A stretch of 43,842 nucleotides of DNA, from the IMG/VR virus record IMGVR_UViG_3300020045_000732, positions 1 through 43,842 of that record. One strand, given 5' to 3'. The notes under the pieces are model-generated. The model was not told the origin of the DNA. It worked only from the letters and a program-made list of their open reading frames with translations, and did no database searches. This DNA comes from a virus. Taxonomy: Duplodnaviria; Caudoviricetes. The translations under genes and the position numbers were made by a program. Shown here in pieces: positions 27,144 through 35,244 of the stretch (the stretch's first letter is position 1; each line of letters begins with the position of its first letter).

Positions 27144-27309
27144 GTGTTATATACCAGTTGTAAGCGCGTTGAAAGCCTTTGAAGTCGTCCTTCATAATAT
27201 AATTACTTAAGACATACTGCTCAAAGTCTACGACATTATGGCCGGTATAGATAAGCTCACCGTTTAAACGAGTAAGAGACTCATCATCAGGGTGTGTGAA
27301 CCACTTCAT
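27094..27309 (-). CDS. Hypothetical protein
   Basis: GAGG RBS, bridges the exonuclease and endonuclease genes. Confidence 0.55.
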   Translation of the reverse strand: MKWFTHPDDESLTRLNGELIYTGHNVVDFEQYVLSNYIMKDDFKGFQRAYNWYITHGYLQPKAQRLGKQTF

Positions 27310-28138
27310 TTAGGTTGATTTCCTCAACTCTTGGTAGTTTTTCTACGTGGGTATAGTACTTAGTACCGTTGCTGTACTTGAATGCACGAAGGTTAGGGTG
27401 GCACTTAGTCTTACAGTGGCAATATCTACAGCCACCAGCAAGAGTGATGTTACCATTAGCCTCAGTCTCAAGGCGACAGTCCTCTGAATCAGGTAGCTCA
27501 CCTGTAGACAGGGTGTTATTGATTTCGTCGATGCGATCAGCAATGTTAGGAGTTTCAGATACGTCTACCTGAGTAAGGCACAGTTTACCAGACTCTTTGT
27601 CTACTGCAAGGAAGGCACCTTTAGTCTCGCCTTGTGCTTGCATGTAAGAGCCAATCTGGTAAAGGTAACCGAATGGATCGTCCTTGGCTAAGGTGTTGTC
27701 TTCAAACTTCTTGAACCCAAAGGAAGAAGCTGACTTAGTATCGACAGTGACACCATCAATCTTACAGTCAATGTAACCGTTAACACCTTTAATAGATACA
27801 CGCTTCTGGCGATCAGTTACTTCGTGGCCACTCAGTTCGACCAGCAGTAGCAACAGTTCTTCTACTAAGTCGCCGTAAAGGAACTTTAGTTTATCTGCCG
27901 CGTCTGGGTCAGGGCGCTTAACACCCCTCATGTACCAGAAGATACGCTTCAATGGATCGCCTAACATGGACATGTATAGTCTAGGTGGGCGTGGTTCACG
28001 AGGCTTAAGGCGTTCGAGGAGAAGGTTAGTAAGGCGTGTTGCGAAGGACATAACAACATCCTTACTAACCTCTTCACTCAGACCCTTAGTAAGAAGGTCT
28101 TGGACATCCTCAACCACAGTACTAAGAGTCTTGGCCAT
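27287..28138 (-). CDS. PD-(D/E)XK (Cas4/RecB-like) exonuclease
   Basis: GYIDC.IDG..VDTKS, YLYQIGSY, C-terminal CRYC....C. Confidence 0.82.
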   Translation of the reverse strand: MAKTLSTVVEDVQDLLTKGLSEEVSKDVVMSFATRLTNLLLERLKPREPRPPRLYMSMLGDPLKRIFWYMRGVKRPDPDAADKLKFLYGDLVEELLLLLVELSGHEVTDRQKRVSIKGVNGYIDCKIDGVTVDTKSASSFGFKKFEDNTLAKDDPFGYLYQIGSYMQAQGETKGAFLAVDKESGKLCLTQVDVSETPNIADRIDEINNTLSTGELPDSEDCRLETEANGNITLAGGCRYCHCKTKCHPNLRAFKYSNGTKYYTHVEKLPRVEEINLNEVVHTP

Positions 28139-31469: not shown

Positions 31470-33145
31470 TACTCACCTACCTTTTCAAATCCTTCTGAGC
31501 CTTCATCAATACCGTCATCCTGTTCAATGAACTGCATAGTAGCATCGTCGAACACCAGTCTACAAGCTACACCTAACCGACCACAGAATCTATTCTTCAG
31601 TACTCGGATGTTGATAGTGTTGGACTTCTCCTTGTCAGGGTCTTGGCCGTTACGCTCAAGGGCAAGGATGATGTTGCTTACATGGCCGATACCAGCAGTA
31701 CCGCGAAGATCACTTAAGGTAATCTGTGCGCCTTCCTCAGCAGGTGTACCACTCAATCTCTTAAGGTGACACACGATGATAAGGCAGATGTCTAGCTGCA
31801 TAGTCAAGGCTTTTAGCTTTGTCGAGATCTCATCGAGTGCTCTACGTTCATCACCGTTTGCTTGGCCTGAAGTAATGATTGAGATGTGATCGAGTACAAT
31901 ATACTTGCAGTTACATCCGTTGGCAAGGAAGGTGATAGTAGACATAATACCATCGATGTCAGAGTATGCAAACATCTTGTCGGCTTGGAGATAGAATCGT
32001 CCTGATTCAAACACATCGTCAAATGCTTTCTTATACTGTTCAGGTGTGAACTTGGAGTCAGGTAAGTGGAAAGGTACCCCTGCCTTCAAGCCCATCATAC
32101 TTAAGCCTGTCTCCTTAGTAGACTCCTCAATCATAAGCATGCCAAGGTTCTCGTCAGCAGGTATGATATCCTTGAGGTACACAGCAAGAGCCTTACAGAA
32201 GGTGGACTTACCCACACCTGTACCTGCTGTGATAGTAACAAGCTCTGACTTACGTAAGCCGTATGTCTTCTTATTCAACCCCTCGAATGGATAAGGGATG
32301 GATGTTTGAATAGCAGTACTGGATAACAGATCCCATAACAAGGATGAGTTAACCACTGTGTCCGGTGTGTAGGGCTTAGCACCCCACCAAGCCTTGGTCA
32401 TACCAGTAATGTCACCAGCCCTGAGGAAGTCGTTAGCATCCTTATACTTACCCATGTCCATGATGACAACTTTGCCAGGTGGGAATCGTTGGGCAATCTT
32501 CTCTGATGCCTCACGCCCAGCGTCATCCTTATCAAAGGCAAGGACAATCTTACCAAAGGTTTGAAGATACTTGAACGCTTGTTGTACGTCCTTGAGTGCA
32601 GTAGACGCAGACTTAACTGAGACTGCTGGCCACGTCAGACCTTCGCAGATAGACATAGCATCAAGCTCGCCCTCAGTGATGGTGATATACTTACCTCCCT
32701 CAGGTACTAGGTGCTGGCCGAATAGCTGTGTACCACCCGAGGTGCCTGTCCAACTGAACCCTTTGTCAGCAACAGTACGTGTCTTAGTAGCAGCGTGTAA
32801 GCCTTGGGTAAGGTAGGGATAGTGGTGCTTAGCTACGCCACCTTGTTGATCGTATGAGAATGTAACGCCGTACTTCTCGAAGGTAGCCTTGCTGATAGCC
32901 CTGTCTAATACAGGTGCGCTGCCCTTAGTAGGTTGTTGAGTTGGTTCTTCCTGTTTTGTTCGTGGGTAGTGATCAACTGCTGTGCCTGTCATCTCTTCGT
33001 ATTCCTTTAATGTACTGTATTTACCACAGCTAAAGCAATAGCAATGGTCGGTATAAACACCCATAGCATCAGAAGATGTACACTTAATACAACTCGTCTT
33101 CTTTATCAAGACTCCGTGGGACTGCTGCTTCTTCGAGTAATCCAT
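31469..33145 (-). CDS. DNA primase-helicase (T7 gp4-like)
   Basis: Zn finger CIKC...CFSC, TOPRIM ITEGELD and FDKDDAG, Walker A AGTGVGKS, LDHIS, DLRG, LKNRF. ATG 33145 best spaced from AGGAG (frame open from 33172). Confidence 0.95.
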   Translation of the reverse strand: MDYSKKQQSHGVLIKKTSCIKCTSSDAMGVYTDHCYCFSCGKYSTLKEYEEMTGTAVDHYPRTKQEEPTQQPTKGSAPVLDRAISKATFEKYGVTFSYDQQGGVAKHHYPYLTQGLHAATKTRTVADKGFSWTGTSGGTQLFGQHLVPEGGKYITITEGELDAMSICEGLTWPAVSVKSASTALKDVQQAFKYLQTFGKIVLAFDKDDAGREASEKIAQRFPPGKVVIMDMGKYKDANDFLRAGDITGMTKAWWGAKPYTPDTVVNSSLLWDLLSSTAIQTSIPYPFEGLNKKTYGLRKSELVTITAGTGVGKSTFCKALAVYLKDIIPADENLGMLMIEESTKETGLSMMGLKAGVPFHLPDSKFTPEQYKKAFDDVFESGRFYLQADKMFAYSDIDGIMSTITFLANGCNCKYIVLDHISIITSGQANGDERRALDEISTKLKALTMQLDICLIIVCHLKRLSGTPAEEGAQITLSDLRGTAGIGHVSNIILALERNGQDPDKEKSNTINIRVLKNRFCGRLGVACRLVFDDATMQFIEQDDGIDEGSEGFEKVGE

Positions 33146-33467
33146 GTTCATCATCTCCTGCACCACACGCATTCTGTAGATAATTATAGAAACCTACCCA
33201 GCTATCGTCGTAGCCAAGAGGTCTGTCTTGGTCAACGCATCTCTTAACCAAGCTCGTATCTTTACTAGGTGTACTCAAGTACTCCAATTGAGAATGGTTC
33301 TTAGGTGCGGCTGTGAAGTACTGTGCTTTACCGTTGTCATCTACCCAGTATCTGGGCACACTGCGGCCAGCAATAACCTTGCAAGTACCGCAGAAGGGGT
33401 CAAAGTTCCCGAGTTTCTTAGACCACACTGGGTGTGCGATCTCCTTATCACATGCTTTACAACGCAT
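33084..33467 (-). CDS. Hypothetical zinc-finger protein
   Basis: MRCKACD...CGTC. Starts just downstream of the tRNA-like RNA. Confidence 0.65.
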   Translation of the reverse strand: MRCKACDKEIAHPVWSKKLGNFDPFCGTCKVIAGRSVPRYWVDDNGKAQYFTAAPKNHSQLEYLSTPSKDTSLVKRCVDQDRPLGYDDSWVGFYNYLQNACGAGDDEHGLLEEAAVPRSLDKEDELY

Positions 33468-33491: not shown

Positions 33492-33615
33492 TGATTAGGG
33501 GTGCAGGGTTGGTTACCTGCTATGGTGTGGTAAGCCTAGATCAGCCGCGGTATAACCGACTGCCCACTGAATACTCGATAACCCGTCTTGCGTGTCCATC
33601 CACGCCGACCCCTAA
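33492..33615 (-). ncRNA. tRNA-like structured RNA (~124 nt)
   Basis: Closing stem TTAGGGGT/ACCCCTAA, D-like arm GCGTG-GATGGA-CACGC, T-like arm GCAGG-TAACCAAC-CCTGC abutting the closing stem, 3' end A-TCA. No canonical anticodon arm. Confidence 0.65.
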
Positions 33616-33620
33616 ACTTG

Positions 33621-34322
33621 TTACGCTACCTTAGCAATCATCTTTGCTTGGTCACGAATCATTTCAATGCCACCTTCAATGTCCAGCTTAAGGGCAGGTG
33701 ACACTTCACTGGTGTCGAGGGCATCTTGGATAAGGTTGAGGGTAGTAAGGATGTTGTAAGCTACGCTATCCTTGAACACTACCTGATCACCAATGCGAGT
33801 AACGTTAGAGTAGATCGGTTTAACAGGCGCTGGCTTAGGGGTTACTACTGCCGGTGTCTGGGTTGTTGTTGGTGTCTGTGCTGCCACGATGGGTTGTTCC
33901 TTCTTAAGTTGTTGTTGGTATGATGAGTACTTCTTCCAATCGTATACCTTATCGTTAGGTAAGTCAATTGGAAAGACGGACTTGTTGTTGATAGTGATGG
34001 GATCTTTCAATACAAACATGGTAACACGTTTACCAAAGTTACTTAGCTTGACTGAAGACTTGATTGATACTGTTGGGTAAGCAAAGGCCTTCTCGATGTG
34101 TTCAAGCGCCTTGTCGCTTACCTTCCACAGTTCGCCCCGTACCTTACCCTGTCTGTGGATATAGGTAGTAGGCCATGCGCACGGTGTACCATAAGCAACA
34201 CCGAAGGCATAGTCCGCATCGGCTGTCTCGTACTCGCCATAGCATTTACCATCCGCTACTAACTTGTGAAGGGCAAACCCTTTCATAGTTGTACCGTATA
34301 CAAAAATAAAGTTACCTGACAT
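33621..34322 (-). CDS. Gamma-glutamylcyclotransferase (GGCT/AIG2)-like protein with C-terminal extension
   Basis: IFVYGT..G at the N-terminus, VRGELWKV. ATG 34322 after TAAGGA (the track start at 34481 lies inside the GATase gene). Confidence 0.75.
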   Translation of the reverse strand: MSGNFIFVYGTTMKGFALHKLVADGKCYGEYETADADYAFGVAYGTPCAWPTTYIHRQGKVRGELWKVSDKALEHIEKAFAYPTVSIKSSVKLSNFGKRVTMFVLKDPITINNKSVFPIDLPNDKVYDWKKYSSYQQQLKKEQPIVAAQTPTTTQTPAVVTPKPAPVKPIYSNVTRIGDQVVFKDSVAYNILTTLNLIQDALDTSEVSPALKLDIEGGIEMIRDQAKMIAKVA

Positions 34323-34335
34323 GTCTTCGTTTTCC

Positions 34336-35244
34336 TTATCCATAGTGTTGTTGCTCAAAGTATTGGTCGTAGTACTTGAGTCTTTCAATGGCTTCACAGA
34401 GGAGCTCATGGGTTTTCTCTGGGTTTTCCACCAAGACTTCAAGATCATCTTCGTTGAGGTGCAGCAGATCATCGAGTTCAAGATTCTCCTCCTTCTTGCA
34501 TATGTTCCTGACCATGTACAATTGTTCGACTGGTTCCCACGCTGGCTTAATAGAGGCCGTAGTGGCGGGTAATGTAGGCGTCGTAGTCTTCGTCGTCGAG
34601 CTTGTTACCGTTGATGGTGGTAAGCCCGTTTGCTTTCCCACGGACACATTTGCGCCACGGTACGTGTTAGTGTAGTGACCGAAGTAAGAGTTGTTTGATA
34701 CTGCACAACCATCACGAGTCTCCCACTTACCAGTACGGATGATGTTACCTTGGTCATCCATGAACAACAGCTTGTTGTTAGAACCTGTCAAGCCTTCAAG
34801 CATATCATGGAAGGCAAGTTCAAAGATAAGGTCGGGTGCCTTAGACAGTACAGGTTGCAGCCAGATCTCGTTGAACATGCGGGTGTCTGACTTAGTAGCG
34901 TGGTTAGGTGTGAAGTGGAAGACACCATTGTGCATGAACCACAGGTCACGACCATGATCCTTCTTGTTCAAGACTTGGAAGGGATGCGCGTTGGGTAGGG
35001 TAACGCCACCGTGGGTGGACATGCGGAGGTGGAATACAGCATGTACATCCTTTAACTTCTCCATCCATTCCCAAGTAGTAGCGCCTTCTTTCCATTTGTC
35101 GAACAGTTGGCGGTGTACCTTGAACTCACCTGTCGATGGGTCACGATACATAACACCAAGACCGTCTTCGTTACGGTTGGCTGCTGCAAGGATGTCCTCT
35201 TTAGCGAGGATAAGCCCTGCTGGTTTATCAATAATAACACACAT
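34336..35244 (-). CDS. Class II (Ntn) glutamine amidotransferase
   Basis: N-terminal Cys (MCVII), N.DG.G, HLRMSTHG, NAHPF, MHNG, SDT motifs. Confidence 0.9.
   Translation of the reverse strand: MCVIIDKPAGLILAKEDILAAANRNEDGLGVMYRDPSTGEFKVHRQLFDKWKEGATTWEWMEKLKDVHAVFHLRMSTHGGVTLPNAHPFQVLNKKDHGRDLWFMHNGVFHFTPNHATKSDTRMFNEIWLQPVLSKAPDLIFELAFHDMLEGLTGSNNKLLFMDDQGNIIRTGKWETRDGCAVSNNSYFGHYTNTYRGANVSVGKQTGLPPSTVTSSTTKTTTPTLPATTASIKPAWEPVEQLYMVRNICKKEENLELDDLLHLNEDDLEVLVENPEKTHELLCEAIERLKYYDQYFEQQHYG

Follow-up and report, generated by a model that had tools for sequence, protein, structure and literature searches.

A Divergent Member of a Large Family of tRNA-Shaped Phage RNAs with an Exchangeable Middle in Place of the Anticodon Arm

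The Phage Genome and the Locus of the Element

The window, i.e., the whole stretch of DNA that was analyzed (43.8 kb), corresponds to an entire virus record, which has direct terminal repeats and is 100% complete. It contains the gene set of a T7/SIO1-like podophage, including terminase, portal, capsid, PolA, and primase-helicase, and its primase is about 41% identical to the primases of Pelagibacter phage HTVC115P and Roseobacter phage SIO1. No RNA polymerase was recognized among the 48 scanned ORFs of the genome; a Cas4-domain exonuclease is encoded at positions 27287-28138 on the minus strand. Close relatives of the phage were found neither in IMG/VR, by primase or amidoligase, nor among cultured phages, by blastn, and the metagenomes yielded no relative with a window-like gapped pattern.

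Between positions 33621 and 37212, the minus strand carries tandem genes for an amidoligase (648 aa), a class II GATase (302 aa), and a GGCT-like (gamma-glutamyl cyclotransferase-like) protein. The GGCT-like ORF (33621..34481; Pfam GGACT, phrog_2520) is the last gene of this cluster and lies upstream of a tRNA-like element on the same strand, which starts 5 nt past its stop, as an earlier note on this DNA had claimed. The element ends 28 nt ahead of an ORF of 127 aa (33084..33467, minus strand), which has a weak match to phrog_10364 and is followed by the primase-helicase gene. It occurs a single time in the genome.

Architecture of the Element

The element has a length of 119 bases and is tRNA-shaped without an anticodon; all of its parts are on the minus strand. 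It starts with the 5' strand of an acceptor-like stem (nt 1-7, 33608..33614), which covaries with the 3' strand across the family described below and forms 7 bp with it (33614-33608/33502-33496), while an extra -1:73 pair is possible (33615/33495). A 2-nt linker (C8-G9, 33606..33607; C8 in 100% and G9 in 90% of 284 members) leads to the D arm (33590..33605), which has a 5-bp stem and a 6-nt loop, G15-A16-W17-G18-G19-A20, with G18 and G19 at the canonical tRNA positions. The place of the anticodon and variable arms is taken by a middle, or cargo, of 69 nt (33521..33589), the last base of which is the invariant A48. The T arm (33503..33520) consists of a 5-bp stem and an 8-nt loop, which has an extra base after position 54, retains C56 and A58, and represents a rare A55/C57 variant. 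The 3' strand of the acceptor-like stem (nt 66-72, 33496..33502) is stacked on the T stem, giving a 12-bp top half, and is followed by A73 and the trailer (ATCA, 33492..33495); CCA is not encoded.

The earlier note had proposed this whole series of parts, from the acceptor-like stem, the linker, and the D arm with its GG to the center of about 69 nt, the stacked T arm, and the final ATCA, and every one was found at its proposed place. The helices that it had suggested within the middle can pair, but the centroid fold does not retain them. It had expected that tRNA finders would probably miss the element; ARAGORN called 0 genes in the window, and an Rfam search of the window returned nothing at gathering score and nothing relevant at E ≤ 10.

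Folded alone, the element has a modest stability (z -1.69; 14 of 200 shuffles fold equally well), and the mean pair probabilities of its three helices are 0.91, 0.98, and 0.89. It retains all invariant bases of the family and deviates at the rare positions 7-66, 55, 57, and 59; no homolog of its middle was noted among the other 393 middles. The tRNA-like fold of the element is real, and it is placed far beyond chance by its homologs, because the structural scanner had 0 matches in 2.9 Mb of shuffled loci.

Distribution of the RNA Family

The copy in the window is a divergent member of a large phage RNA family. The structural scanner found 394 distinct copies in 477 of 605 loci, a set that was gathered by motif searches and is hence biased to the motifs used as queries. 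In the part of IMG/VR that was scanned, an exact 17-base D arm occurred at 119 loci (the estimate for the total is about 260 stretches). In nearly all of these, a T-like arm follows 40-180 nt later, together with a strand that is able to pair with the bases ahead of the D arm. Further exact scans yielded at least 120 matches with the T arm (about 250 estimated), at least 120 with a second D-loop variant (about 260 estimated), 44 with the T loop of the window type, 72 in GTDB genomes, and at least 120 in metagenomes (about 1000 estimated).

The named GTDB carriers are mainly Alpha- and Betaproteobacteria, and also include Acidobacteria, Planctomycetes, and Verrucomicrobia. Six cultured phages contain a full, unannotated, intergenic copy, i.e., Caulobacter phage DMCA, Alcaligenes phage QDWS595, Komagataeibacter phage phiKX1, Pseudanabaena phage Pan3, Iodobacter phage phiPLPE, and Acidovorax phage AP1, and in phiKX2 the family is known from BLAST hits only. 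BLAST hits in Stenotrophomonas phage Moby and Desulfovibrio phage 7757 were rejected, as they are devoid of the family motif. One query gave no match in E. coli genomes, and plasmids had short matches only.

Two of the 72 GTDB matches are CRISPR spacers over the family T arm (L299:2985-3025 and L270:2995-3030; from Derxia lacustris and a Vicinamibacterales MAG), which belong to arrays with no fewer than 13 and 19 repeats, respectively. A spacer against the conserved T arm would let one spacer reach many phages.

Several variations on the family theme were observed. Two copies per locus are present in L177 (tandem), L310 (inverted), L419, L421, and L456. Loci L317-L358, a part of the set with the window-type T loop, contain a sister subfamily in which the acceptor is fixed and precedes a U run, and in which the D loop is remodeled or lost; L318 holds two copies of it, and L327 has its upstream flank in common with L115/L333 and a different interior. 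In L143, L248, and L295, long hairpins are inserted into the D loop between G15-A16 and G18-G19. Two Rfam families were found close to members, namely DUF3800-IX directly 3' of one (L049:3113-3183) and Burkholderiales-2 about 0.8-0.9 kb upstream of two others (L013:2013-2086, L053:2140-2213).

Covariation of the Frame and Its Relationship to tRNA

In the frame common to the family, covariation extends to each of the three stems: the acceptor of 7 bp, the stem of the D arm, which has 5 bp and a loop containing G18G19, and that of the T arm, which also has 5 bp and bears a loop of 8 nt. When the T arm was placed by its loop alone, all seven acceptor pairs were formed in 69 of 84 unique copies (out of 119 matches), compared to 5.3 (at most 13) with shuffled partners. 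Likewise, with the D arm placed by its loop alone, all five pairs of the D stem were formed in 130 of 136 copies (out of 193 matches) versus 65.7 (at most 77) with shuffled partners. In a held-out metagenome set of 80 new copies (from 120 matches, 15 of which were too short and 17 without T arm), acceptor pairs 1-4 were intact in 67 copies versus 4.4. The ten pairs with the highest mutual information among 284 copies were all predicted helix pairs. The claim of the earlier note, a tRNA mimic without an anticodon arm, is thereby borne out: homologs exist, and all three arms show compensatory changes.

In the same 284 copies C8, G15, A16, G18, G19, A20, A48, G53, C56, and A58 are 99-100% conserved, some of them by construction of the scanner. 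The D arm equals exactly tRNA positions 10-25, while the T loop is a tRNA T loop plus one base after position 54, which itself can be U, A, or C, and has 8 or 9 nt. The acceptor length varies across members from 7 to more than 20 bp. The family has the 7-bp acceptor on a 5-bp T stem, the G18G19 of the D loop, C56, and A58 of tRNAs. An anticodon arm with a 7-nt loop (27-43) is missing, and the middles share no closing helix; also missing are the 7-nt T loop with U54-U55-C56 and U8, with C8 present in 100% of the copies and A55 and C57 in the window copy.

The closest resemblance is to class II tRNA-Leu (E. coli leuX; RF00005), which has the same 7/5 top half and, like the family, G18G19 within a D arm of 16 nt; leuX also agrees with the family majority in the three outer pairs of the D stem and in the entire T stem. 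A tRNA-Leu(CAA) that was called in one of the loci shares the same parts of the D and T stems with the family majority as leuX. Because of this likeness, the family frame probably descends from a class II tRNA-Leu. In contrast to tRNA-Leu, members have no anticodon arm, contain C8, a 5-bp D stem, and an 8-nt T loop, mostly do not encode CCA, and have a variable discriminator and a swappable middle of 28-201 nt. Of the tRNA-Leu identity set (A73, G18G19, A20a, A15-U48, U8-A14, and U54-A58; PMC9976931), G18G19 and A58 are retained, A73 is found in 45%, and G15/A48 and C8 replace A15-U48 and U8-A14.

The conserved junction could alternatively be the core of a self-cleaving ribozyme, with the middle as a peripheral insertion, and the T arm does resemble a twister hairpin. 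One weak Twister-P5 match overlaps one of 60 scanned loci (E 0.61), yet its 21.9 bits contrast with a cut-off of 37.6, covariation of a loop-stem pseudoknot was not observed, T-loop variants follow tRNA patterns, and the arm lengths equal those of tRNA exactly. Twister and twister-sister were therefore rejected, and a ribozyme in general is the least probable of the explanations considered here.

The Exchangeable Middle

The middle, which replaces the anticodon and variable arms, has a length of 28-201 nt (median 83), and the 394 middles fall into 345 clusters. It is swapped wholesale between phages with near-identical flanks. Among 17 pairs of copies in which both 60-nt flanks are at least 70% identical, 10 have middles with at least 91% identity and 7 have middles with at most 51% identity, with none in between; the identity of random middles has a mean of 43% and a 99th percentile of 57%, and the 17 pairs are not independent of one another. 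The flanks of L013 and L041, for example, are 95 and 98% identical and enclose unrelated middles, and the break points are exactly the end of the D stem and A48. Near-identical middles were also found under different acceptors.

Homologous middles offered a view on selection. In 19 homologous pairs 31 compensatory double changes were counted, compared to 7.4 ± 2.5 in simulations (at most 15 in 500), together with 55 broken pairs versus 83 simulated, and with 172 substitutions in stems versus 141 expected; one partner was folded alone and the other was scored, the counts include both directions, and the null model ignores clustering of substitutions. As substitutions exceed the expectation in stems, the unpaired parts are conserved. 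The compensatory changes, the low number of broken pairs, and the stem-biased substitutions together indicate that the structure of each middle is under selection and that its loops are conserved. As a class, the middles fold slightly better than shuffles (mean z -0.39) and have no common architecture.

Some middles deserve separate mention. Those of L111, L152, L199, L262, L290, L315, L392, and L425 contain degenerate tRNA bodies nested in the shell, mostly without a usable anticodon. By eye, the middles of L081 and L089 (52-56 nt) may form a pseudoknot or an alternative helix, in which compensatory changes are seen, and those of L032 and L215 contain hairpins that covary, along with an anticodon-like arm that is conserved and carries the triplet GAU.

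Promoters, Ends, and Transcriptional Setting

A -10-like hexamer ends 6 nt ahead of nt 1 in 32 of 212 copies, accompanied by a TTG peak 34-36 nt upstream, and the full promoter pattern is present in 22 of 212 copies versus 1 in each control; the 212 copies leave out the T-loop subtype of the window. The -10 peak recurs in the held-out metagenome set, with a gap of 6-7 in 12 of 80 copies. Of 69 promoter-class copies, 62 begin with G1 and 44 have A73. Their downstream gene is on the opposite strand in 37 of 55 cases, and 12 of the 55 have one on the same strand at a distance of up to 100 nt, while a same-strand ORF follows within 100 nt in 36 of 105 promoterless copies; these orientation counts are rough, since they stem from heuristic gene calls, which chose the wrong downstream ORF for the window. 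Because of the predicted +1 at nt 1, the G start, and the downstream gene on the opposite strand, promoter-class copies look like stand-alone, leaderless transcripts. In a second class (52 of 301) the acceptor is extended by at least 7 pairs into the leader. A recurring unannotated sequence lies 3' of the long-stem class in L038, L050, L055, L253, and L454, among regions rich in GNRA hairpins, and possibly represents another phage RNA motif. The signal for an own terminator is weak (16 versus 9 of 301), and the ends of metagenome contigs do not pile up at the ends of the RNA.

The copy in the window has no promoter at the -10 spacing found for the family, and judging from this setting it would be cut from an operon transcript. 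RNase P gauges the length of the stacked acceptor and T stems, starting from the elbow, and also cleaves substrates other than tRNAs (PMC4919913). Maturation by RNase P, which had been suggested in the earlier note, is plausible for the embedded copy of the window, but does not extend to the family in general, because many members are predicted to be leaderless and 52 of 301 leaders are paired over at least 7 extra bp.

These data also bear on the view that the element is a t-element-like processing or stabilizing signal in cis, at which RNase P and RNase Z would cut the phage transcript, or the blunt 5' helix of which would shield the downstream message. The window copy would fit such a role, being located between co-directional genes, 5 nt past a stop and without a promoter at nt 1, and its 12-bp top half is what RNase P measures; moreover, about one third of the promoterless copies have the closely following same-strand ORF mentioned above. 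However, copies of the promoter class are devoid of a leader that could be cut, and the gene downstream of most of them is on the opposite strand; the long-stem class has its leader paired, and the selected and swapped middles would be left unexplained. We thus regard a signal in cis as rather improbable.

Neighboring Genes and the Amidoligase Cluster

A conserved partner gene was not found: the largest cluster of neighbors encodes an endolysin and is present at 17 of 154 loci, and the 129 nearest ORFs of 44 promoter-class copies contain no recurring partner. One copy, in L310, adjoins a gene with an Acb2/Tad1 domain, the sole anti-defense neighbor among the 129. A same-strand tRNA was called by ARAGORN within 500 nt of 27 of 145 copies.

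A link of the RNA to the amidoligase-GATase-GGCT cluster was rejected, since none of 484 loci holds a homolog of any of the three genes. It also fails in reverse: a related GATase is encoded at 80 phage loci, 78 of which have the amidoligase and 9 of which have GGCT, and the RNA was found at none of them. The amidoligase cluster beside the element of the window is incidental.

The earlier note had brought up a function as aminoacyl carrier. Most plausibly, such an RNA would be leucylated after addition of CCA and would feed a non-ribosomal transferase or the adjacent amidoligase cluster. LeuRS reads A73 and the D/T corner and ignores the anticodon and the variable arm (PMC9976931), and the frequent G1 and A73 of promoter-class copies and the resemblance to tRNA-Leu are in line with this idea. 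In opposition to it, NCCA is encoded in 6 and G3-U70 in 3 of 394 copies, the discriminator varies, and across the whole family no more than 45% have A73; in place of A15-U48 and U8-A14, members contain G15/A48 and C8, with 14-21 paired; and RNA and amidoligase, GATase, or GGCT genes do not co-occur in either direction of the search. An aminoacyl carrier is thus very unlikely.

Searches for Targets

The searches for targets of the middles were negative. No excess of complementarity in cis was observed within ±3 kb (51 members) or within loci of 12-20 kb (50 members). For the own translation starts, 4 of 54 members had p < 0.05 versus 2.7 expected; the window copy, which has no long unpaired stretch, was excluded from this set. 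The best seed against translation starts had no shared target in the phages carrying it. Five host genomes contained no long complements and nothing beyond chance or the T arms of tRNAs, and similarity of middles to rRNA pieces or antisense to rRNA or tRNA was at control level. An origin of the middles as copies of other phage DNA was rejected, as 8 of 305 middles had such a match versus 2-5 in shuffles, and repeat-end motifs, used for the detection of CRISPR-repeat mimicry, matched 0-1 of 306 middles. The consensus for CsrA/RsmA comprises several ANGGA motifs in loops, and a sponge for these proteins was rejected, as there is one ANGGA word in the D loop and the middles are depleted of it (56 versus 77). 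A mini-mRNA was rejected as well, because Shine-Dalgarno motifs are depleted in the middles.

The P4 CI RNA is, like C4, a small phage RNA in a tRNA-like frame. C4 (RF01695, P1/P7) is a phage antisense RNA processed by RNase P (PMC11143913) and shares with the family the tRNA-like frame and variable single-stranded parts; the geometry of the family with its 12-bp top half would also fit an RNase P substrate. Together with the conserved unpaired stretches in the middles, this precedent speaks for a C4/CI-type antisense RNA that would regulate the own genes of the phage. In contrast to C4/CI, the family has no Rfam match, including none to C4, no target found in cis, no fixed immunity-region context, and a full D/T elbow; every cis test was negative, and anti-Shine-Dalgarno motifs are depleted in the middles (7 versus 13.6). 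There is only a slim chance that this is the function.

A decoy for anticodon nucleases, as envisaged in the earlier note, is weakly backed, since there is no anticodon-like loop on offer: such a loop was found in 6 of 208 middles, compared to 2.4 in shuffles.

Comparison with Known RNAs

At gathering score, no Rfam family fits the frame in the window or in 60 loci, and the tRNA matches found there are neighbors or nested pieces. tRNA finders and Rfam miss the family because an unalignable insert splits two short conserved halves. Full-text searches of the open literature turned up no description of the family, and the part of the Fremin 2023 files that was scanned showed no match to the family motif; either conserved half may be listed as an unnamed candidate in the alignments of Fremin 2023 or Weinberg 2017. 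This widespread phage RNA family has apparently been undescribed so far.

An engineered tRNA scaffold for recombinant RNA reportedly carries its cargo in the position of the anticodon arm of a tRNA frame, which yields a stable RNA; the family, unlike this scaffold, is natural and encoded by phages, and its cargo, of hundreds of types, is exchanged between genomes. In tmRNA, too, the anticodon arm of a tRNA-like domain is replaced by a large insert. However, the family has a D stem and a short, unconserved insert, while G3-U70 and CCA are nearly absent, and neither an ARAGORN call for tmRNA in the window nor an Rfam call on the element was obtained. RNA C and RNA D of T4 (species 1 and 2; NC_000866) are also stable phage RNAs, of 120-140 nt, and are encoded in a tRNA cluster, but on inspection neither has the family D arm or the 8-nt T loop.

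YrlA, a bacterial and phage Y RNA encoded next to Ro60, mimics D arm, T arm, and acceptor without decoding and has a looped acceptor between the T and D arms (PMC4201824), whereas the family has its arms in tRNA order, free ends, and no conserved neighbor. TROVE/Ro60 was not found among 40 representatives of neighbor clusters or among the 129 nearest ORFs. Allo-tRNAs and other irregular tRNAs are non-canonical, in some cases encoded by phages or acting outside translation, and have 8/4 or 9/3 folds with anticodon arms (PMC5389517 and PMC7609411); in contrast, the family is 7/5 without an anticodon arm.

Discussion

The family combines three covarying helices and invariant elbow bases with the replacement of the middle and with selection on its folds and loops. 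The best explanation, for which our confidence stops just short of even, is that of a natural tRNA scaffold, in which the fixed frame makes an exchangeable folded middle a stable RNA that acts in trans on a component of the host or of a rival phage. The D and T loops would dock and form an L-shaped elbow. Promoter-bearing copies would start at nt 1, while in embedded copies such as that of the window RNase P and 3' trimming enzymes would free the RNA from the phage message, and CCA could be added later. The closed ends would resist nucleases, and the RNA would not decode. The two conserved arms of about 25 nt could serve as homology boxes for swapping middles among phages, and each middle would bind a different protein or RNA target. 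Several results do not sit easily with a scaffold: all target searches were negative, middles fold only slightly better than shuffles without a common layout, and selection on their folding could serve only the integrity of the elbow. Furthermore, a specific partner of the elbow itself is suggested by the strict sequence conservation of the frame and by the unusual T loop.

The latter aspects lead to an alternative in which the elbow is the active part. The non-decoding top half of a tRNA would titrate a host enzyme that reads the elbow or the acceptor, e.g., a tRNA-attacking defense effector or a toxin, and the middle would need only to fold. The near-invariant elbow bases, the family-specific 8-nt T loop, the same-strand tRNA calls in the vicinity, and the tRNA fragments nested in 15 of 394 middles (0-3 in shuffles) are in agreement with such a decoy, and because there is no phage partner gene, the partner would be a host factor. 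Phage tRNAs are known to counter PtuAB and PrrC (PMC11555353). In contrast, unpaired cargo positions are conserved between homologs and stems covary, anticodon nucleases would find no anticodon loop as bait, the acceptor length is variable, and an anti-defense neighborhood beyond the one Acb2/Tad1 gene was not seen. On balance we consider an elbow decoy unlikely, albeit with a chance that has to be taken seriously.

The natural tRNA scaffold, our favored explanation, can be extended to a tentative and more far-reaching view, which we hold to be possible rather than probable, namely, a modular RNA-effector system across phages of several bacterial phyla, with one tRNA-derived chassis matured by host enzymes and with hundreds of interchangeable structured payloads, i.e., decoys, aptamers, or antisense heads against host defenses or rival phages, swapped through recombination between its arms under arms-race selection. 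If this view holds, the engineered tRNA scaffold would have a natural counterpart, and the family would supply a ready catalog of candidate RNA-based counter-defenses.

Cargo and elbow readings are directly testable, because cultured phages of laboratory hosts (Caulobacter DMCA, Komagataeibacter phiKX1, Pseudanabaena Pan3) carry the RNA and swap pairs occur in nature. Should the elbow be the part that acts, the family points to a conserved host sensor of tRNA shape or a nuclease. If the middles are payloads, they represent a new route by which phages package and trade RNA effectors, with about 345 candidate functional RNAs.
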